This document shows, piece by piece, positions 5,334 to 64,000 of a DNA stretch of 64,000 bases. Numbering within the stretch: position 1 is the first letter of the stretch; each line of letters starts with the position of its first letter. The translations under genes and the position numbers were made by a program. Origin of the DNA: an uncultured cyanobacterium (lineage in GTDB: Bacteria; Cyanobacteriota; Cyanobacteriia; Cyanobacteriales; CAWUOF01); NCBI GenBank assembly GCA_963744145.1, contig CAVUSO010000001.1, positions 4,288,001 to 4,352,000 of the forward strand. The letters run 5' to 3'. The notes below the pieces were generated by a model, which was not told where the DNA came from, did no database searches, and saw only the letters and a list, made by a program, of their open reading frames with translations.

Positions 5334-5413
5334 TTCCAAACAAGGTCTCCTGGAAGGTTAGATGATTTTATCTATGCTGTGGCCGAACCAATATTTTATT
5401 TGAGGAAAAAATA

Positions 5414-53923: not shown

Positions 53924-54037
53924 GTTCAGTGGAGTGCTAATTTTAGCCAATATTAACCAATCTACTGGTATTTTCCAGTAGGTTGGGAGGAAAAAAATTC
54001 TGTTCGCGGCTAATTGCGGAAATTGAGAAAGTTCGCG

Positions 54038-54598
54038 ATGCTTGTAAAAAAATATTATTGGCAAAAGGCAAAATTAGGTTTATGGGCAAGTCTAGCTGGT
54101 ATGATGGTGGCTTGTACCGCTAATAATTCAATAGGACCAGTTTCAATTAATAGTCGCTATACTGATGAACAACCGACTTTAAGTGGAAATGGTCGGTTTT
54201 TAGCTTTCGTTTCTAATCGCAATGGTCGTCGCGATATTATGTTGTATGACTTACAACAGCAGCAGTTTGTCGATGTTCCAGGATTAAATCCGAATGGGGC
54301 GATCGCGGAAAATCCCAGTCTTAGTTATAGTAGTCGTTATATTGTTTACCTGACTAGCGACCAAGGAAAACCGATTATTGTTCTGTATGATCGGACGATT
54401 AAGCAAGCACAGATTCTCACTCAAGGTTATTGGGGTTGGGTCAGAAATCCCAGTATTAGTCCTGATGGTCGTTATGTGGTGTTTGAAACCAGTACCAGGG
54501 GACAATGGGATATTGAGGTACTCGATCGCGGTCCGAATATTGAACTAGATCGAGTTGAGGGGAATACATCGGAAACTGGGATCAAAAATTCACTGTAA
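54038..54598 (+). CDS. TolB-like PD40-repeat lipoprotein
   Basis: Lipobox MVAC; PD40 repeats (PSISPDGRYVVF). Confidence 0.85.
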   Translation: MLVKKYYWQKAKLGLWASLAGMMVACTANNSIGPVSINSRYTDEQPTLSGNGRFLAFVSNRNGRRDIMLYDLQQQQFVDVPGLNPNGAIAENPSLSYSSRYIVYLTSDQGKPIIVLYDRTIKQAQILTQGYWGWVRNPSISPDGRYVVFETSTRGQWDIEVLDRGPNIELDRVEGNTSETGIKNSL

Positions 54599-54613
54599 TT
54601 AGGTCGGATCACT

Positions 54614-55150
54614 GTGAAAAATTTTGTCAGATCATCGGGTTGGTTATGGATGGTAGCGATCGCTTCTTTATTAAGCAGTTGTAGTAGTTATCCCCGTTTA
54701 CTGAGTTTTCCCTTTGATCCGGGGGGAAGAAGTTTAAATAGTCCTTCATCCCAATTAACTCCGAACATATCTGGTCGCTATATTGTATTTGTGTCCGATC
54801 GCAGTGGGACTCAAGATATTTATCTGTTTGATGGGATTGATCAAAGATTAATCGATTTACCAGGATTAAATTCACTAGATGCGATCGCTTCCCATCCGGG
54901 TATTTCTGGAGATGGACGTTATATCGTTTTTGCTGCTACTCGTCAGGGACGTTCTGGGATTTATTTATACGATCGAGAAACTCGTCAATTGCGTAATCTC
55001 ACGGAAAACCTCCAAGCTGAAGTGAGAAATCCGACTATTAGTGCGGATGGTAATATTATTGCTTTTGAATCTAGTGCTAATGGTCATTGGGATATTTTAG
55101 TTTACGATCGAGCTGGTCAACCCTTAAATGTACCGATCAATCCACGCTGA
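54614..55150 (+). CDS. TolB-like PD40-repeat lipoprotein
   Basis: Lipobox LSSC; PD40 repeats. Confidence 0.85.
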   Translation: MKNFVRSSGWLWMVAIASLLSSCSSYPRLLSFPFDPGGRSLNSPSSQLTPNISGRYIVFVSDRSGTQDIYLFDGIDQRLIDLPGLNSLDAIASHPGISGDGRYIVFAATRQGRSGIYLYDRETRQLRNLTENLQAEVRNPTISADGNIIAFESSANGHWDILVYDRAGQPLNVPINPR

Positions 55151-55291
55151 TTTTAGTTGAGGAAACATCCCTGCGTAAGTTCTGAATAATACATTTCTAC
55201 TGGACTGGCGATCGCTAAGTATTATAGAAAGGTTAAAAACCTGCTATAATATAATGTTAGTTATCTATGTTGACAAAGTGAGGTAATCATT

Positions 55292-55589
55292 ATGTTATCA
55301 ATCGATATTAGACCAGAATCAATAGTTAAAAGAATTGAGGATACTGTTTCCATTTTAATGGAAGAACACCCTTTGTTCAAGGAAGATTCTGAATTATTCA
55401 GAAATCGTAAACCATTTAGTTCAAGTATTTCAAAAAAACTTATCTTTTGAGGAATTTAGTATGATGTCAGAGACAAACTTGAAAAAACGTTGTAGTCGGA
55501 TAATGGCGATCGAACTTTTGGGAAAAATTAGTGAAGACTTTACCCCTGAACAAATGGCGATTTTTGAAGAAGCAATCAAACGTAAATAG
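55292..55589 (+). pseudogene. Putative antitoxin with a 1-bp frameshift at about 55380
   Basis: gagg RBS + MLSIDIRPE...HPLF; the shifted frame continues KILNYSEIV...FTPEQMAIFEEAIKRK and ends 11 nt before the VapC-type gene. Confidence 0.6.
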
Positions 55590-55600
55590 ATTCTGAGATT

Positions 55601-56002
55601 ATGAGTTATTTATTAGATACTAATATTGTTTCTTTTGCGATTCGGCGAAATTCTCAAGTCCTTCAAAATATTAAAAAAGTTGAAACTGAAGAAAATATCT
55701 TCATTAGTTGCATTACCTATTTTGAAATTAAGCGAGGATTTTTAGCGGTTGATGCTCCTAAACAAAAGGCAAGATTTGAAGAATTTTGTCAAATTTATCC
55801 GATTATTTTATTAGATGATTTAGAAATTTTAGAAAAAGCATCCGAAATTTATGCTAATCTGAGATTAAGAGGTTTGCCGATCCAAACTGAAGATATTTTA
55901 ATTGCTGCTACTGCTATAGTTAAAGGTTTAATTATGGTTTCTAATGATACAGATTTAGTAAGAATTGAAGGTTTAAATTTAGAAAATTGGGCTCAATTAT
56001 AA
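55601..56002 (+). CDS. vapC: VapC-family PIN toxin
   Basis: YLLDTNI, YFEI, DILIAATA, SND motifs. Confidence 0.9.
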   Translation: MSYLLDTNIVSFAIRRNSQVLQNIKKVETEENIFISCITYFEIKRGFLAVDAPKQKARFEEFCQIYPIILLDDLEILEKASEIYANLRLRGLPIQTEDILIAATAIVKGLIMVSNDTDLVRIEGLNLENWAQL

Positions 56003-56060
56003 AGCGATCGCACCGGATGATATGGTTGATGAAAAATCGAGGATTGATGGAAGCTAAGAT

Positions 56061-56552
56061 GTGGTGAGTAGAAATTCGTATCTATTAATTATAATCGGAT
56101 TAATTATAAGTGGCTGTAATTCATATTTGAATCAACCACCTTTATTAGGTGGTGGTCTGAATAGTCGGACACCAGATGAATATCCTTCTTTTAGTGCGGA
56201 TGGTCGCTATTTAGCTTTTGCATCCGATCGCAATATGACTCGGAGTATTTATTTATATGATTTGCAACAACATAGTCTGATCCCTTTACCAAACTTAAAT
56301 CGCGTTGATTCTAGTCAAGATCAACCTGCGCTTAGTGCAGATGGTCGGTTTATTGCTTATGTTTCCACTGAACGTGGTAAAACTGATATATTTAGATACG
56401 ATCGGTTTACGAAAACATCCCAATTACTAACTTATAATATTCGGAATTCAGTCCGACATCCGACTATTACAGGAGATGGAAATTTGGTATCATTTGAATC
56501 GAACCGTTCTGGTCAATGGCACATTGAAATTATCGATCTTCGGGGTAAATAA
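56061..56552 (+). CDS. TolB-like PD40-repeat lipoprotein
   Basis: Lipobox ISGC; PD40 repeats. Confidence 0.85.
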   Translation: MVSRNSYLLIIIGLIISGCNSYLNQPPLLGGGLNSRTPDEYPSFSADGRYLAFASDRNMTRSIYLYDLQQHSLIPLPNLNRVDSSQDQPALSADGRFIAYVSTERGKTDIFRYDRFTKTSQLLTYNIRNSVRHPTITGDGNLVSFESNRSGQWHIEIIDLRGK

Positions 56553-56604
56553 AAATTAAACAGCAAACCAAGAATAGTTTGCTGCTCTTTTTAATTGCAG
56601 GTTT

Positions 56605-57822
56605 TTATTGACTTGATTCTAGTTGTTCGATCGACTCAATCAGCGATCGGATTGTAGCAGTACCTTCAGAACTTTCAAAGTGAAAAGGTAATTTACCCCG
56701 CATCAACATTCTTAATCCCAATGGTCCTAATTTAGCAAGTTTCATCCAACCTTCTAAGGAATGATTAAATAAGCGGAGAGCAAATTCACGCTCATTAATC
56801 CAACCTCCTTTTTTGACCAAGTCTACCAATAACTTACGATGACGAATCGGTTGACTGGTAGATTCATCCTTACGAGTGAGGATTTCTTGTTTAATTTTGC
56901 TAATTTGATCCATTGGTGCTACTTCCATTGGACAAACACTATTACAGTAAAAACAACGAGTACAACCCCAAACACCTCTGGTATCTTGATTATATTTTTC
57001 TAACCGATTTTCAGTTTGCCGATCGCGCGAGTCTGCTACCATGCGATAAGCTTTAGCCAAAGCATGGGGACCGACAAAACCTGGATTTACCTTTACTGCA
57101 TTACATTCAGAGTAACAAGCTCCACATAATATACAATTACCAGTCTGATCCAACTCCGATCGCTCGTTTGGGGTTTGTAAAAATTCGCGATCGGGAATTT
57201 TCCTAGCACCTGTTGAGACATAAGGATCAACTGCTTCCAGATTTTGCCAAAAACCAGTCATATCTACCACCAGATCCTTAATTACGGGCATATTGCCCAT
57301 CGGTGCTATAATAATTTCTGGAATTGACTCGATCGCGGTTGAAGTTGGGGTCAAATTGACTACTGATGTGGCGATCTGCTGTAGACGTGCTAATTCACTA
57401 CCCACATTTTCCTTACAAGCTAGAGCAGAACGACCATTTATTACCATTGCACAGCTACCGCAAATGGTATTGCGACAATTTTTCCGAAAAGCTAAAGTAC
57501 CATCTTGTTCCCATTTAATTCGATTGAGACAATCCAGGATGGTATTTCCAGGATCGACATCTAGAGTGTATGCTTGTTCCCTAGCTGTATCCTGAGCGGA
57601 GTCGAAGGTTGTACCCTGAGCGGAGTCGAAGGTTGTACCCTGAGCGGAGTCGAAGGTTGTACCCTGAGCGGAGTCGAAGGTTGTACCCTGAGCGGAGTCG
57701 AAGGTTGTACCCTGAGCGGAGTCGAAGGTTGTACCCTGAGCGGAGTCGAAGGTTGTACCCTGAGCGGAGTCGAAGGGGGGAGTATTCTCTGGCGATCGCC
57801 TGATTTTAACAATGATTTTCAT
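56605..57822 (-). CDS. sdhB: Succinate dehydrogenase/fumarate reductase Fe-S subunit with an N-terminal repeat insertion
   Basis: CRNTICGSC, CILCGACYSEC, CTRCFYCNSVCP; start at ATG 57822 (MKIIVKI). Confidence 0.93.
   Translation of the reverse strand: MKIIVKIRRSPENTPPFDSAQGTTFDSAQGTTFDSAQGTTFDSAQGTTFDSAQGTTFDSAQGTTFDSAQGTTFDSAQDTAREQAYTLDVDPGNTILDCLNRIKWEQDGTLAFRKNCRNTICGSCAMVINGRSALACKENVGSELARLQQIATSVVNLTPTSTAIESIPEIIIAPMGNMPVIKDLVVDMTGFWQNLEAVDPYVSTGARKIPDREFLQTPNERSELDQTGNCILCGACYSECNAVKVNPGFVGPHALAKAYRMVADSRDRQTENRLEKYNQDTRGVWGCTRCFYCNSVCPMEVAPMDQISKIKQEILTRKDESTSQPIRHRKLLVDLVKKGGWINEREFALRLFNHSLEGWMKLAKLGPLGLRMLMRGKLPFHFESSEGTATIRSLIESIEQLESSQ
57591..57778. repeat. 8 x 24-bp in-frame tandem repeat (ccctgagcggagtcgaaggttgta)
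   Basis: Core ctgagcggagtcgaagg at 57592 + 24n; encodes FDSAQGTT. Confidence 0.95.
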
Positions 57823-57940
57823 TTTTGATCCTAAAAAAATAAAATAAGCTATTTTGCTGTAATCGCATTGATCGGATAACCTGTTCAGATATAATAACAA
57901 TTTATGGCGATCGGTTAAAGTCGCTTGTGAGTGATCTGTG

Positions 57941-58016
57941 TTGGTTGGGCAGGTTTATGATAGTTATCTGTTTGGATCAGAATTAATTGGTGAACCTGCC
58001 CCTACAAATCCTGGTT
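57941..58016. repeat. REP-like hairpin (gggcaggtt...aacctgcccctac); inverted copy at 62461-62535
   Basis: Direct comparison of the two copies. Confidence 0.8.
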
Positions 58017-58311
58017 CATTGTGAGCATAAATTCATTCACCTGCCCTTACAAATCCTGTTAATCTTGTAATCCTCTCATCCTGATCGATTTTTTGGTGAA
58101 TCCCTGTAGGGTTACCGCTGAATTTGCTACACACAAATAACCGCATATCCGTCCCACTCCAAGAATTTTGCTGTATGGCTGAATTATCTAGGCTCGCGAT
58201 CGCTAGATGGCTCGGATATGTTTTAGGTGTCTTTTGGTCTGTTTTTCTCAATAATTGGTAAACTTTTCAGTGTAGCGATCGCATATCGAAAATTATTAAT
58301 ATTGTAAGTAT

Positions 58312-59103
58312 ATGAGCATTCAGGAAAAATTCAAAACTGTATGTGCTTTGAAAATATTTGAACCAGGTTATGAAAAGCCGTGGTTAACAGACCCTAATAA
58401 ATGTGATCAGATCCAAAATAAGCTTTCCTATTTTAATCCTAACCATAGCAATAGTTCAGAACATATTGATCAAGTTTATAAAGCGTTAACTAGAGGAGTT
58501 GGTCTAGTTGAAGCAGGGATAGAATGGGAAAATCCCGCAATTGGTGAAAAACCTAGACCCCGAAATAAAAGTAGTATCCTTGATGAAAGCAATATAGTTG
58601 ATGAAAATACGACAACTGGTAAAGAAAAGTCTCGGCGAACTGATACTGATAAATACCGAGGTATTCAATGGAAACTGGTAATCGTTTATGTTGGCTTTGA
58701 GATTATATCCAAAACATTAATGATGGATAAGTTTAATCGGACAGTTCCACCAGGAATGTATGAGCAATTCCTTGAAAAATGCGCTCTGCCTGATTACAAA
58801 CCAATAGCCGCGCCAGAGAAAAAAAGCCTTACTAAATGGCTTGATAAAGAAGATGGAGCGTTGGCAGAATTTTTGGGGATAGGGGCGGGAGATAAGAAAG
58901 CTATTGATCGATGGTTAGTTGAATCAAAACCTGTAGATTCCTGGGAACAAGCATACAAGCTAGCAAAAGCCATGAGAAATGCTTCTGCACATGGATTTCT
59001 ACTACCAAGTAGGATTGGTAAATGGGGATTAAAACATGGATTTCGTAAGTTAACTGATGATTTAGCACTAATTGTTACTGAAGGACTGAGTAAGATTACT
59101 TAA
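58312..59103 (+). CDS. Hypothetical protein with a HEPN-type RNxxxH motif
   Basis: Helical-looking 263-aa ORF; WKLVIVYVGFEI helix and AMRNASAHG (58975-58992). Confidence 0.6.
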   Translation: MSIQEKFKTVCALKIFEPGYEKPWLTDPNKCDQIQNKLSYFNPNHSNSSEHIDQVYKALTRGVGLVEAGIEWENPAIGEKPRPRNKSSILDESNIVDENTTTGKEKSRRTDTDKYRGIQWKLVIVYVGFEIISKTLMMDKFNRTVPPGMYEQFLEKCALPDYKPIAAPEKKSLTKWLDKEDGALAEFLGIGAGDKKAIDRWLVESKPVDSWEQAYKLAKAMRNASAHGFLLPSRIGKWGLKHGFRKLTDDLALIVTEGLSKIT

Positions 59104-59145
59104 TTAGTCTTTTGAATTTTGTCTAAATTGATTTTGTCAAAGGTA

Positions 59146-59175
59146 TTGACAAGTAGTTGTGATTCAGCATATTAT
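59146..59175 (+). promoter_or_regulatory. Sigma70-type promoter
   Basis: TTGACA-N18-TATTAT. Confidence 0.55.
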
Positions 59176-59176
59176 T

Positions 59177-59752
59177 AAGTTGATAAATACACAAAGAGCT
59201 GAAGACCGCAAATTTTCGCGCTTCTTGTGTATTTTTCAACTTTTGTGGCTAAATTAATAAGATTGCAAGTCCAAACACAGATAGTTGGTATCCGGCGCAT
59301 CAAATCAGGGTATTGACAATCTTGACGGTTGGTTGTAAAGTAGGTTCAATGTTTATTTGTCATTAGGCAATTGATTGAAAAAGCCCTAGTTTTCATTGCC
59401 ATTGCACAAATACAGCATATTCCTGATTGATGAAGTACACTCTGGAAGTGAAGATCACCTATTTTTAGTGCTATCTAGTGTACTTTTTTGAGCAAATATG
59501 CTGCATACAGAGACTCTGAAGGCAGCGAATTTACGCTCTTCAGCAGGTTCAATTAGGTGCAATTGGCTCAGAAAACCCTCGTTTTCACGGCTATTGTATA
59601 AGTACACAAAGAGCTGAAGACCGCAAGTTTTCGCGCTTCTTGTGTACTATCCAATATTTGTCGCTAAATTAATAAGGTTGTGAGTCCAAACGCAGACAGT
59701 TGGTATCCAACGCAAAAAGCAGGAGCTTAGTCAATACCCATACCATCAACCT
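59177..59752 (+). ncRNA. Candidate modular structured RNA (repeated hairpin modules A, B, C)
   Basis: Repeat of about 130 bp at 59188 and 59603, extra A and B modules, compensatory base changes between copies. Confidence 0.55.
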
Positions 59753-59849
59753 ATAATGAAAGATGTTCCATGTAGCGTAAGCTAATATTTGGTAGATTTT
59801 ATGTCTTAAATACTTGTCTCTATTTATCCAAAAAAAAAGGAGCATTATT

Positions 59850-60212
59850 ATGGATGAAGTAGTAAAAAAAATAGCCGCTATTGGTCTACCAGGTATCATC
59901 TTTGTAATCACAATGGCCACCACAGGTTTAGGTGGAGCAGCTGCAATTACCAAAGCCTTATATCTATTAGGTCCTGGTGGGATGATTGGCGGTATTGTTT
60001 TTCTGGGAATAATCGGATTAGTTTCGGATACTTTGACTAAATATGGGTTGACAGAATTTCTGAAAGCCGTATATGTAGAAAGGTTAGCAAAAGGCGAATC
60101 TGCGGTAGATTTATGCAAAGAGATTGATTATTTGTTTATTACTAATGAGCTTAAGCTAGTGCTTAAAGACCATTTGTCTACTATTACTAATCAAGGAAAC
60201 AGAATCATGTAA
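59850..60212 (+). CDS. Small glycine-rich membrane protein
   Basis: aaggag RBS + ATG; GLGGAAAIT...GPGGMIGG hydrophobic hairpin. Confidence 0.75.
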   Translation: MDEVVKKIAAIGLPGIIFVITMATTGLGGAAAITKALYLLGPGGMIGGIVFLGIIGLVSDTLTKYGLTEFLKAVYVERLAKGESAVDLCKEIDYLFITNELKLVLKDHLSTITNQGNRIM

Positions 60213-60248
60213 TCGCACTCTTCCAGCAAAAATGACCGTTGATTTTTT

Positions 60249-60363
60249 GGCGTTGCTTAATCAGGGTATGAAAATCCTGTAGGGGCGCAAGAGCCATGCG
60301 CCCTGGGAGCAAGAGCCATACGCCCCTACAAATTATTTATTCATACCGTAAATCAGCAACGCC
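60249..60363. mobile_element. MITE-like element (ggcgttgct...agcaacgcc ends) carrying a REP hairpin
   Basis: Terminal inverted repeats and gtaggggcg...cgcccctac; a right-end-only copy lies at about 62407-62442. Confidence 0.75.
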
Positions 60364-60453
60364 CCAATTTGCTCATAAGGTCAAAAAGAGATATCAACTC
60401 AAACTAATTGTTTACGAACCGTTAACTGAGGAGATTGTGCAATGGATAAATTA
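60364..60453 (+). pseudogene. xisH: 3' remnant of xisH
   Basis: Reads QFAHKVKKRYQLKLIVYEPLTEEIVQWIN*, overlapping the xisI start as in intact xisHI pairs. Confidence 0.75.
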
Positions 60454-60777
60454 GAGCATTATAGAATCTGTATCCAAGCCATCTTAGAACAGCATAGCCA
60501 ATATAAATCCAATGACGAAAATATCGAAAGCGCACTTTTTTTTGATCCAATACGCGATCACTACCAATTGATGCGGATCGGCTGGAAAGGCTTAAAGAGA
60601 ATCTATTACACTATCCTACATTTCGATATCAAAGAGGGCAAAATTTGGCTTCAGCAAAATACCACTGATAGCGATGTAGGTGAAGAACTATTGGCAATGG
60701 GTATTCCCAAAGAAGATATTATTCTGGGTTTACATCCTCCCTACAAGCGTCCTTATACCAAATATGGTGTTGCTTAA
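60442..60777 (+). CDS. xisI: XisI family protein
   Basis: MDKLEHYR...RDHYQLMRIGW...KIWLQQN...GIPKEDIILG. Confidence 0.92.
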   Translation: MDKLEHYRICIQAILEQHSQYKSNDENIESALFFDPIRDHYQLMRIGWKGLKRIYYTILHFDIKEGKIWLQQNTTDSDVGEELLAMGIPKEDIILGLHPPYKRPYTKYGVA

Positions 60778-60889
60778 AACCTCATGAACGATGTTCTCAC
60801 AGGTAAATTGATCTAGCCAATAATTCCCGATCGCATTTTTTGCTACTATCAAAAACCAATTAAAAATACAATAACAGGAGATTTTTATT

Positions 60890-61459
60890 ATGTCTCTGAT
60901 GACAGTTAAAGACTTAGAGCAAGTTCAAAGTACACTCTCTGAGGCGGGTTTAGATTATCAATTAGAATTAGAAAATGGGAGAATTCAAATTGTGGGGCCA
61001 TCAGATATCGTATCTAGCGAAATTGGGATTCGTCTCAGTGCTTTTCTGTTTGCCTGGGTCAATCCTCGCCGTCTCGGTCGAGTATTTGACTCCGCAGGTG
61101 GTTTTATGATGCCCGATACCAATCTGAAAGCCCCCGATGTTTCTTTCGTGCGAGCATCCCGTCTGCGCCAAAGTGTGCGTTACTTTGCCGAATTGGTGCC
61201 GGATTTGGTGGTGGAAATCAAATCTCAAAGCGATCGCGTCAAGTCTATAGAAAAGAAAATTCGGAAATTTTTAGAATTGGGAGCTACAGTCGGTATTCTC
61301 ATCGATCCGGATGAGTTAACTGTTACTGTTTATCGCGATCGCAGCGAACCGCTTGTGCTAGAAAATGAAGATATCTTAACAGTTCCAGAACTTTTCCCTG
61401 GTTGGGAATTACCTCTTAAGGAACTGTGGCCCCCTGTTTTTACCGAAGACGAAGTTTAA
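60890..61459 (+). CDS. Uma2 family endonuclease-fold protein
   Basis: ELENG, APDVSF and PDLVVEIKS motifs. Confidence 0.9.
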   Translation: MSLMTVKDLEQVQSTLSEAGLDYQLELENGRIQIVGPSDIVSSEIGIRLSAFLFAWVNPRRLGRVFDSAGGFMMPDTNLKAPDVSFVRASRLRQSVRYFAELVPDLVVEIKSQSDRVKSIEKKIRKFLELGATVGILIDPDELTVTVYRDRSEPLVLENEDILTVPELFPGWELPLKELWPPVFTEDEV

Positions 61460-61697
61460 AGAAATAACTTGGCTGTGTATTTAACTAATTTTTATTATTC
61501 CAAAACTAACCAGGATTTAGATAACCCATTACGCGATCCGCTAAACACTGGAAGTTTGCCCGATTATACAGTAAAATGAATACGCGAGTTTTCTGAAATA
61601 CCCACAATGCCCAGAAAAGTAATGACTGAACCGCATCCGTCAGAGTACAATCTAATGGTTAGTTAGACCCCATTCAAGCAATAGGATGGTAAGAAAA

Positions 61698-62279
61698 ATG
61701 ATCGCAGTAGCAACAGCAACGATAGCAACAGAACCAACAAGAAAGAAATTCACGGTAGAGGAATATTACAAGCTGGGTGAAGTTGGGATAATTGGACCTG
61801 ATGAACGGACGGAATTAATTGATGGGGATATCATTCTTATGTCACCGATGGGACGTCGTCATTTTGGTTTTTTAATTCGACTGAATAGAATTTTTTCCAA
61901 GCTTTTTAATGATCGTGCTTTAGTAGCGATACAAGGTCCAGTCAGACTAAACGGAGAATTACAACCAGAACCCGATCTATTAATTTTGAAACCTTGTGGA
62001 GATGATTACATAGAATCAGATATCCAAATCCAAGACATTTATTTACTAATTGAAGTAGCGGATACCACTATTAACCATGACCGCAATGTGAAGTCAGTCC
62101 TATATGGCAGAGCTGGGATTATTGAGCTTTGGATTGTAGATATAAATGCTGAATTAGTAGAGGTGTATCGCAATCCTGGTCCGAACGGTTATGAAAGTAT
62201 CCAACAATTCAGACGCGGCGAAAGTATCTCACCCCTGGCATTTCCAGATTTAGTAATTAGTGTTGACGATATTTTGTAG
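61698..62279 (+). CDS. Uma2 family endonuclease-fold protein
   Basis: FTVEEYY, ELIDG, PEPDL and LLIEVADT motifs. Confidence 0.9.
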   Translation: MIAVATATIATEPTRKKFTVEEYYKLGEVGIIGPDERTELIDGDIILMSPMGRRHFGFLIRLNRIFSKLFNDRALVAIQGPVRLNGELQPEPDLLILKPCGDDYIESDIQIQDIYLLIEVADTTINHDRNVKSVLYGRAGIIELWIVDINAELVEVYRNPGPNGYESIQQFRRGESISPLAFPDLVISVDDIL

Positions 62280-62559
62280 ACCAATAGTTTCGATTACTAA
62301 TCAACCGGATTCAATCGCATTTAATTTAGTTACTTCACTTCGTCTCAAACCGTTATCCCATAAGAGTCTCAGAATAGCGTAGTCGCGTTGACCAGGTACA
62401 GTATCGCCTACAAATTTATTCATACCATAAATCAGCAACGCCGAATTTATGATGACAATCAACCAGGATTTGTAGGGGCAGGTTCACCAATCAATTCTGA
62501 TTCAAACAGATCACGATCATAAACCTGCCCAACCAAACGAGATAACTTCATCAACGTGG

Positions 62560-62716
62560 AATCCGCTGTATCTGGTGGGTTTCGTCGGAATCGGTTTCTG
62601 GTTTCTGTTGCTGACGCATCCGGTAATTGGGTTTGGATTGCATCAATGATAATGCTTTGCTCAAATTTTTTGAAATCGCGTAAATCTTGAACTGCTTCAG
62701 GCGTAAGGTCACACAA
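62560..62716 (-). pseudogene. RelE/ParE-like toxin fragment truncated by a REP element
   Basis: LTPEAVQDLRDFKKFEQSIIIDAIQTQL...ETRNR, then the frame reads into the repeat. Confidence 0.55.
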
Positions 62717-63170
62717 ATAGTTGAGGATATTCTAACAGAATGCGGTCAGGTTGACAAAAAGATCGGCAGCGCACCTTTTTTTGAGTTAGTACGCGATCGC
62801 TACCAACTGATGCAGATTGACGAGAAAGTTACTATTACGTCGCCAGGCAAGTGACCACACGGAAGTATCAACAATAACCTTCATAATACTTGTCTTTGTT
62901 TCTTATAATCATTAATTTCTGAGCTGCGTCACGATAATCATGGCAGTGACCAAACGCGATCAACCATGCCATTGTCAAATAAATTTAAACCTTTGTTCCT
63001 GCTGTATCCCCTTAGCACCAGCGATCGCCCCAGCACTATCAAGCCGCAATAATCACAGAAATCGGGTCCATAATTCATCCTCACTCATTTTTAACAGGGG
63101 AAAATATTGGTCTTACTGCGGATTGCCATTACATATACCACAAAGTTAATATAATGAGATCATGAGATCG

Positions 63171-63434
63171 TAAATTGATCTAGCCAATAATTCCTGATCG
63201 GGTTTTTTGCTACTATCCAAAACCAACTAAAAATACAATAACAGGAAATTTTTATCATGTCTGAAGATGACAGTTAAAGACTTAGAGCAAGTTTCATTAT
63301 ACCCGATCCCAACCTGAAAGCCCGAGATGTTTCTTTCGTGCGAGCGTCCCGTCTGCGACAAAGTGTGCGTTACTTTGCCGAATTGGTGCCGGATTTGGTG
63401 GTGAAAATCAAATCTCAAAGCGATCGCCTCAAGT
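63171..63434 (+). pseudogene. Internally deleted duplicate of the 60890 Uma2 gene and its upstream region
   Basis: Matches 60803-60925 and 61113-61244 with the middle removed. Confidence 0.85.
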
Positions 63435-63483
63435 TAAATGTAAAGATTGCTATTCTACGAATCGTTTGCAGGAAAAAAGAATA

Positions 63484-64000
63484 ATGAGCAATTTTGCTGG
63501 GATAAGTTCAAAAGCGACCAATGAACTCTCGTGTTTTCTTCCTAATGATCTTGGAGATTTGAGTGATATTCAAAGAGCAATTCCTCGTATTGCTAAAGAT
63601 GAAAGGATTACTAGCCAGATAGAGCAATCTCTCCCTCAGATTCCAAGTAAACACGCTCTTTATCTGGGTGATGCCCGTGAAATGTCAGTGATTAGACCTC
63701 AGAGCGTTCACTTAGTATTGACATCACCACCATACTGGACACTCAAAGCATACAACAAGGTGAATGGGCAACTTGGCTACATTGACAGCTACGAAAACTT
63801 TCTTGATGAACTTGATAAGGTTTGGCAAAGATGTTTTGAGGTTTTAGTACCCGGTGGTCGGTTGATTTGCGTGGTAGGGGATGTCTGTCTTTCTAGAAGA
63901 AAAAATGGTGGACGACATACTGTAGTGCCACTCCATGCCTCGATCCAAGAGCATTGTCGCTCGATCGGTTTTGATAATCTTGCCCCAATCATTTGGCACA
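63484..64000 (+). CDS. Site-specific DNA methyltransferase (beta class, N4-C/N6-A), runs off the window edge
   Basis: Manual translation: LYLGDAREM...SVHLVLTSPPYW...LVPGGRLICVVGD...IIW. Confidence 0.88.
   Translation, partial: MSNFAGISSKATNELSCFLPNDLGDLSDIQRAIPRIAKDERITSQIEQSLPQIPSKHALYLGDAREMSVIRPQSVHLVLTSPPYWTLKAYNKVNGQLGYIDSYENFLDELDKVWQRCFEVLVPGGRLICVVGDVCLSRRKNGGRHTVVPLHASIQEHCRSIGFDNLAPIIWH

Follow-up and report, generated by a model that had tools for sequence, protein, structure and literature searches.

A predicted HEPN ribonuclease of filamentous cyanobacteria and the predicted, separately promoted hairpin RNA behind its gene: a candidate toxin–antitoxin cassette

Filamentous cyanobacteria carry an unnamed gene whose predicted product is an RNA-cutting (HEPN) enzyme. 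In one clade of its family, across many genera, a consensus promoter and a conserved hairpin lie behind the gene, an arrangement that would make a two-part cassette. The locus described here was found in a window of 64,000 nucleotides from an uncultured cyanobacterium with a genome of 7.7 Mb, within a patch of small accessory genes that has XisI and Uma2 among its neighbours. The RNA and the protein very probably form a functional pair of some kind. We moderately favour a type III-like toxin–antitoxin cassette, in which the hairpin RNA would bind and inhibit the HEPN RNase, because the locus has the anatomy of a toxin with an RNA antitoxin: the protein is a predicted RNase, no partner protein accompanies it, and a predicted structured RNA is linked to its gene behind a strong promoter.

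The gene encodes a 263-aa protein of an unnamed, mostly cyanobacterial family, and its position and that of its RNASAH motif had been correctly placed by an earlier sequence-only reading (Table 1). The protein has no match in Pfam, PADLOC or NCBIfam, nor to PDB chains by sequence. Thirty-eight close homologs were found, all named ones being cyanobacterial and annotated as 'hypothetical', and a profile search yielded 201 representatives of the family at 50% identity; homologs were absent from viral contigs, phage records and plasmid records. The residues R222, N223 and H227 are invariant in 29/29 aligned proteins, and RNxxxH is present in 59 of 60 loci, the single miss being a truncated contig. 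A weak DUF4209 match was detected in 11 of 29 members of the family, and the nearest named Atlas cluster (22% HEPN_RiboL-PSP, at 0.82) serves as a lead only.

The AlphaFold2 model of the protein is all-helical, with a pLDDT of 84. A Foldseek search of the PDB, which had been suggested as a check, returned nothing at E ≤ 0.001, whereas the exhaustive structural search with VIA-align placed HEPN domains at the top: the best match was 2hsb (Z 8.3, rmsd 3.7, 117 aligned), followed by 5yep, which we take to be the HepT toxin (Z 7.7), 8xdj, 3o10 and 7ae2 (7.5 each) and 4nqf (7.3), with HEPN named in the titles of five of these six. A Z of 8.3 is middling and, as the tool itself warns, such values are common among helical bundles; the fold was therefore assigned from the agreement of the top matches together with the motif, rather than from the Z value. 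Furthermore, a homodimer was predicted with a score of 0.82, while the best of three controls scored 0.00, with a pLDDT of at least 81, runs that agree in at least 83% of contacts and residues 226–229 at the interface. Of 30 solved dimers, 20 reach the mark applied, as does 1 of 23 single chains, and the pass may reflect likeness only, because HEPN dimers have already been solved. The R-x4-6-H motif, the all-alpha fold and the predicted homodimer with motif residues at its interface place the modelled protein in the HEPN superfamily, as the motif had led the earlier reading to expect. Among the representatives of the family, scanned in 31 of the 150 listed, beta-propeller or LRR fusions also occur: in P0145, P0146, P0152, P0156 and P0158 the predicted HEPN domain is fused to WD40, PQQ-type beta-propeller or LRR domains, which makes them candidate sensor–nuclease fusions.

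The locus is best read in the order P1–A1–C1, then P2–B1–(A3 with a MITE-like element)–B2–A4–C2, and then P3 with the gene at 59850. The promoter TTGACA-N18-TATTAT that had been noticed past the stop codon was borne out as P1, the best of 13 promoter-like sites in 57800–60600 (11/12 matches), a number of sites that is itself near chance expectation (9.5 ± 3.3). P1 has the same position class in the homologous loci, and in this genome the 200 nt that precede the HEPN gene contain no −35 site comparable to that of P1. Hairpin A1 consists of a long basal stem, a bulged upper part and a U-rich 3′ end. A1 with C1 (59183–59299) and A4 with C2 (59598–59714) are the copies of a 117-nt duplication, 87% identical, while B1 and B2 form a 48-nt pair (75%). 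In A3, the MITE-like element splits the 5′ arm and the 3′ basal arm is gone, the upper motif alone being left (59510–59546). The 591-nt region as a whole (59170–59760) folds with a z of −6.55, against −5.30 for the opposite strand, and predicted stems at 59259–59323 and 59674–59752 join each C module to the −35 region of the next promoter. Modules B and C have no match in 60 other homologous loci.

Table 1. Features of the HEPN locus (coordinates are those of the window)
Feature	Coordinates	Strand	Remarks
Predicted HEPN RNase gene, unnamed family, 263 aa	58312–59103	+	RNASAH (R222–H227) encoded from 58975
Promoter-like site P1, TTGACA-N18-TATTAT	59146–59175	+	42 nt past stop codon
Hairpin A1, predicted small RNA, candidate antitoxin	59177–59242	+	z −6.5; covariation; covariance model 61.1 bits
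Module C1	59248–59324	+	Duplicated along with A; predicted stem-loop overlapping P2
Promoter-like site P2, TTGACA-N17-TAAAGT	59313–59341	+	Promoter-pattern scan
Module B1, hairpin directly after P2	59348–59408	+	Weakly stable alone, z −0.9; local to this genome
A3, degenerate A copy	59404–59546	+	z −1.9; no match to covariance model R1
MITE-like dispersed repeat ('A2'), 97 bp	59410–59506	.	Terminal inverted repeats
Module B2, hairpin	59559–59597	+	z −3.5
Hairpin A4, second intact A copy	59597–59657	+	z −5.9; covariance model 55.5 bits; no promoter directly before
Module C2	59663–59752	+	z −1.7
Promoter-like site P3, TAGTCA-N18-TATAAT	59728–59757	+	Likely for the 59850 gene (presumed role); AGGAG at 59838
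120-aa Gly-rich hydrophobic protein, widespread unnamed family	59850–60212	+	85 homologs

From the module array first proposed (A1-C1-B1-A2-A3-B2-A4-C2), the repeats, the A1/A4 and B1/B2 pairs and the C modules stand, whereas 'A2' is the MITE-like element and P2 and P3 had been missed. The expected hairpin folding holds for A1, A4 and B2 but is weak for B1, A3 and C2. Concerning the two compensatory changes quoted, the A–U to G–C change between A1 and A4 is genuine (columns 8/55), while the other sits in the predicted stem between C and the −35 region.

Some further observations concern the array and its surroundings. A perfect 10-bp inverted repeat (59308–59317 and 59730–59739) brackets the P2 unit and corresponds to the extended −35 word of P1 and P2 and its reverse; an antisense promoter at 59730–59739 was discarded, as it shows no usable −10 by eye and is absent from the list of promoter sites. 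Part of module C1 (59254–59292) matches the 76-bp terminase–endonuclease gap of the marine cyanophages Syn19 and Syn2 (87% over 39 nt, E 0.05), probably by chance, the match coming from one related phage pair. Upstream of the HEPN gene, a palindromic repeat region at 57933–58050 resembles the REP-type repeats common in cyanobacteria; its Rfam mir-449 row is a chance match. A 23-nt tandem repeat of about eight copies (57590–57778), encoding repeated FDSAQGTT-type peptides, lies in frame in the 5′ part of the gene at 56605–57900 on the minus strand, presumably succinate dehydrogenase/fumarate reductase iron-sulfur-like. Three adjacent lipoprotein-like genes, which we assume to carry TolB/PD40-type repeats, occupy 54014–56552 with a PIN-domain-like gene in between.

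The left end of the element at 59410–59506 matches 58 places in the same genome (at most 7 substitutions in 31; three shuffled queries gave 0), and a second full-length MITE-like copy of 96 bp is found at position 2943115 of contig C1. The family comprises many left ends and just two short full-length copies (within 330 nt), and it is also found in genome G032. The bases that flank the element read as halves of an A-type 5′ arm, which suggests a MITE-like insertion into A3. 'A2' is thus an insertion, separate from the HEPN–RNA system, and the locus looks like a modular array because local unit duplication and a MITE hit came together in this genome. The concern that the modules could be a genome-wide dispersed repeat applies to 'A2' alone. 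For hairpin A it was dismissed, since the covariance model R1, built from 22 copies, matches two sites in the genome, A1 and A4, both of which belong to its training set. Rfam gave no match over 55000–64000 beyond six chance-level rows.

In the homologous loci, the RNA follows a shared design, with a 12–18 bp basal stem at the expected transcript start, a 3′ side rich in U and an upper part that ranges from about 25 to more than 100 nt. The hairpins differ greatly between lineages, and many loci hold two or three units, often with one promoter each (Nostocales, Okeania and the present genome among these). A DNA search with the whole array in 60 relatives found MITE-end and chance matches only, so the RNA appears too divergent for BLAST. 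In a sequence-only alignment of 25 short hairpins from six lineages, in which L014 and L068 were retained although misaligned, 89.5% of basal-stem cells are paired, compared with 74.5% after shuffling and 32–52% after sliding; these figures are inflated because possession of a stem was the basis on which hairpins were selected and the score cut-off was set after the stem results had been viewed, and many of the copies are close kin, related sequences being able to beat shuffles. Two-sided changes occur in 11 of the 12 pairs of the basal stem, G–U pairs being present, and RNAalifold recovered 11 of the same pairs unaided, with a covariation term of −2.39. The covariation expected for the modules was thus found for A, while B and C are local to this genome. 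The upper part keeps CU-x-A and CAA bases; mimicry of a tRNA anticodon loop by the CU-GAA, CU-CAU and CU-CAA words was rejected when the alignment was read by eye, there being no closing stem. Taken together, a cis-encoded, predicted structured RNA is linked to the putative toxin gene, and the hairpin is likely transcribed as a small RNA of 60–130 nt.

Two variations on this design were noted. In five Nostocales-type loci (L039, L061, L063, L065 and L066), the first promoter precedes a second, multi-branched RNA of about 100–125 nt, which has its own basal stem and lies ahead of the A copies. In L068 (= L017), from position 5387 onward, the upper motif of the second unit has expanded and now forms a tandem array with a 21-nt repeat unit.

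R1 matches 2 of 151 genomes, at the HEPN gene or its remnant (36 candidates scored per genome), and gives no match in the outgroup loci. Even with filters off it misses the longer forms of Okeania, Trichodesmium and Lyngbya as well as L014 and L068, and the homology of these therefore rests on position and design. In genome G113, two R1 copies from outside the training set lie beside a remnant of the HEPN gene that lacks the motif. Such persistence of the RNA after gene loss could suggest that it is a substrate of the HEPN protein, or an independent regulatory sRNA processed by it, with no toxin system involved. HEPN enzymes also process RNA, and AbiF cuts its own RNA (PMC12737573). We nevertheless regard this explanation as very unlikely: no RNA copy was found away from the gene among the 151 genomes, at 36 scored candidates per genome. 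Moreover, toxin–antitoxin pairs usually decay by losing the toxin first, so the order seen in G113 is the usual one for them too.

The linkage of promoter and hairpin to the HEPN gene was analysed in 61 loci (13 from 401 genomes of the order, 19 from metagenomes and 29 from genome contigs), 60 of them with a long match. A unit was defined as a TTGAC promoter followed at 33–45 nt by a basal stem of 12–18 bp, within 700 nt of the stop codon. It is present in 30 of 37 distinct clade loci, including the present one, in 0 of 10 outgroup loci and behind 17 of 4,121 control ORFs of contig C1, with a stem score cut-off of 23 that was set after the stem results had been viewed. The 37 loci are those left after the removal of nine duplicate rows and of the truncated or fragmentary L022, L032, L043, L044 and L048. 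When the strict promoter alone was sought within 300 nt past the stop, 34 of the 56 loci whose gene end is intact and whose flank is long enough had it; counted by clusters, this makes 21 of 42 at 90% identity and 9 of 19 at 70%, compared with 249 of 4,168 control ORFs. In a midpoint-rooted protein tree, all 34 fall into one supported group of 45 rows (96/91), and none of the 11 rows outside it has the promoter. Carriers include Microcoleus, Symploca, Okeania, Trichodesmium, Lyngbya, Capilliphycus, Anabaena and Cuspidothrix.

The seven clade misses were inspected by eye. In L038 and L058 the unit is present but its promoter matches less well, L053 falls one point below the cut-off, and L033 is truncated by the end of its contig. 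The unit seems degraded in L057 and L067 and is missing from L060, so that L060, and probably the other two, lack the RNA inside the clade despite an intact motif. The ten outgroup loci keep RNxxxH without the promoter–hairpin and without a conserved partner, and genome G349 carries both kinds of HEPN gene, RNA-linked and RNA-less. Some RNA-less outgroup genes (L019, L020 and L023; L070, L071 and L073) sit at fixed sites behind conserved large genes, presumably protochlorophyllide reductase B-like and chelatase-like. Among other promoter-plus-stem sites scanned in the present genome, no second HEPN–RNA pair was seen by eye.

On the question of whether the array travels with the HEPN gene or with the gene at 59850, these counts link the promoter and module A to the HEPN gene. 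The alternative, in which the array would serve the membrane-protein gene at 59850 as a structured leader or immunity RNA, draws on the adjacency of that gene on the same strand, but it is largely refuted and keeps only a slight residual probability. The 59850 gene has P3, a promoter-like site of its own; among 60 other HEPN loci, just one has a homolog of it, placed upstream on the opposite strand; and the genes that follow hairpin A in other genomes are unrelated. The gene at 59850 is a passenger neighbour, outside the HEPN–RNA system.

The distribution also bears on a second alternative, in which the hairpin is a DNA or cis element, such as one end of a small mobile cassette or the promoter–terminator insulator that the cassette left behind, with no contact with the protein. 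The family is patchily spread (10 of 401 genomes of the order) and its neighbours change by lineage and are rich in toxin–antitoxin and mobility genes, as would suit such an element; moreover, both strands fold, and copies survive beside a deleted gene. Nevertheless, the unit always lies on the strand of the HEPN gene, behind a consensus promoter and at transcript-start distance, the stem contains G–U pairs, and the plus strand scores far above the other with R1, which was trained on it. Neither a second end upstream, nor dispersed copies, nor a transposase conserved nearby was found, and we consider this alternative unlikely.

The preferred interpretation, a toxin paired with an RNA antitoxin, is modelled on two known systems. 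AbiF is an HEPN RNase homodimer with an R-x4-H motif, which a cis-encoded bulged hairpin RNA, present in one or two copies, binds and inhibits (10.1101/2025.04.15.648962; PMC12737573); one RNA is bound per monomer and bulged bases block the enzyme (PMC12737573), and the abiF RNA is upstream and co-transcribed (PMC13064643). AbiV is an HEPN dimer that is inhibited by a neighbouring RNA and binds the small abiV2 hairpin (10.1101/2024.05.05.592566). Both known RNAs lie upstream of the gene (PMC13064643; 10.1101/2025.04.15.648962).

The cyanobacterial system shares with AbiF (AbiD-F; Abi_2, PF07751; RNA RF03085, also AbiFr or RCd22) a predicted HEPN homodimer and a cis-encoded hairpin RNA. However, Abi_2 is absent from 29/29 members of the family, hhalign to one weak, below-cut-off Abi_2 protein gave a probability of 0.2%, RF03085 has no match here, and the RNA lies downstream with its own promoter. 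PbAbiF (8VZ6) was not among the 50 VIA-align matches listed, which excludes nothing. As for AbiV (abiV1 RNase and abiV2 RNA), its structure 9bj5 matches the model (Z 6.1, rmsd 3.4, 119 aligned), but the likeness is in fold only, with no match by Pfam, PADLOC model or PDB-chain sequence; besides, abiV2 is upstream and about 296 nt long, and AbiV has about 200 aa compared with 240–260 here. HEPN–MNT (type VII, HepT/MntA) supplies the closest solved folds (5yep, 8xdj and 7ae2), yet no nucleotidyltransferase or other conserved partner protein was found among the neighbours (ORFs of at least 90 aa) in 48 loci. ToxIN, CptIN and TenpIN are type III systems in which a protein RNase is likewise combined with repeated copies of an RNA antitoxin, but they have a ToxN-family fold and tandem pseudoknot repeats upstream in one operon, in contrast with the HEPN fold and the spaced downstream hairpins with separate promoters found here (for binding in ToxIN, see PMC13064643). 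The system likely works like AbiF and AbiV while being a member of neither. What appears to be new is an unnamed HEPN family joined to a covarying hairpin RNA that is unlisted and has a promoter of its own. Neither the family nor the RNA was found described in the literature searched, a body that most subscription papers lie outside; the supplementary structure lists of PMC12873609 may hold the hairpin and the HEPN–ncRNA survey of Zilberzwige-Tal et al. (2025) may include the family.

By analogy with AbiF and AbiV, the RNA would be produced in excess from its own strong promoter, each protomer would grip the stem of one RNA, and the loosely paired upper part, with its shared bases, would block the active site. 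If host transcription stopped, or if a phage factor displaced the RNA, the RNase would be freed and could cut rRNA or tRNA, leading to cell arrest. Extra promoter–hairpin copies would raise the dose of antitoxin. The RNA partner that the sequence-only reading had suspected for the HEPN protein finds support in linkage and covariation, for module A and its promoter only. The ten motif-keeping outgroup loci indicate that genomes can carry a member of the family in the absence of this RNA, a point against an obligate antitoxin, and the evidence from sequence fits an inhibitor and an activator RNA alike.

The RNA could instead be a needed subunit or sensor of the HEPN dimer, its constant stem docking on the protein and its variable upper part setting the trigger or target. 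A basal stem that stays constant and keeps its distance from the −35, below upper parts of such different length, would agree with this, as would the several different units per locus in Nostocales, Okeania and the present genome. Furthermore, abiV2 is required for AbiV defence (10.1101/2024.05.05.592566), and the life of outgroup genes without the RNA would fit a protein that is harmless alone. Against this, the upper parts are self-paired or conserved within a lineage, module A has no match to phages or plasmids, and antisense matches to the cognate mRNA do not go beyond those of non-cognate controls in 9/9 loci; we hold this role to be fairly unlikely. The same comparison in the nine loci led us to reject antisense (type I or CreA-like) control of the HEPN mRNA. 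It also speaks against the guide array that had been suggested, whose copies are near-duplicates rather than unique spacers; spaced near-duplicates and a module A without target match likewise separate the locus from a Cas13 CRISPR-like guide array. A bolder form of the subunit role, in which swappable upper parts and differing units on a constant stem would turn the dimer into an RNA-programmable HEPN nuclease by a second, independent route, is quite unlikely.

In the literature searched, AbiF and AbiV are the only RNA-inhibited HEPN families. If the present interpretation is true, this would be a third, unrelated HEPN family, with its own downstream RNA, and RNA control of HEPN RNases would have arisen more than once. 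The parts of the system are small, about 250 aa and 60 nt. AbiF is the proposed ancestor of Cas13, and if the programmable role were true it would parallel the AbiF-to-Cas13 path in an unrelated family. Finally, a sister group without the RNA, together with the beta-propeller and LRR-fused relatives, makes the gain of RNA control traceable and testable within this family.
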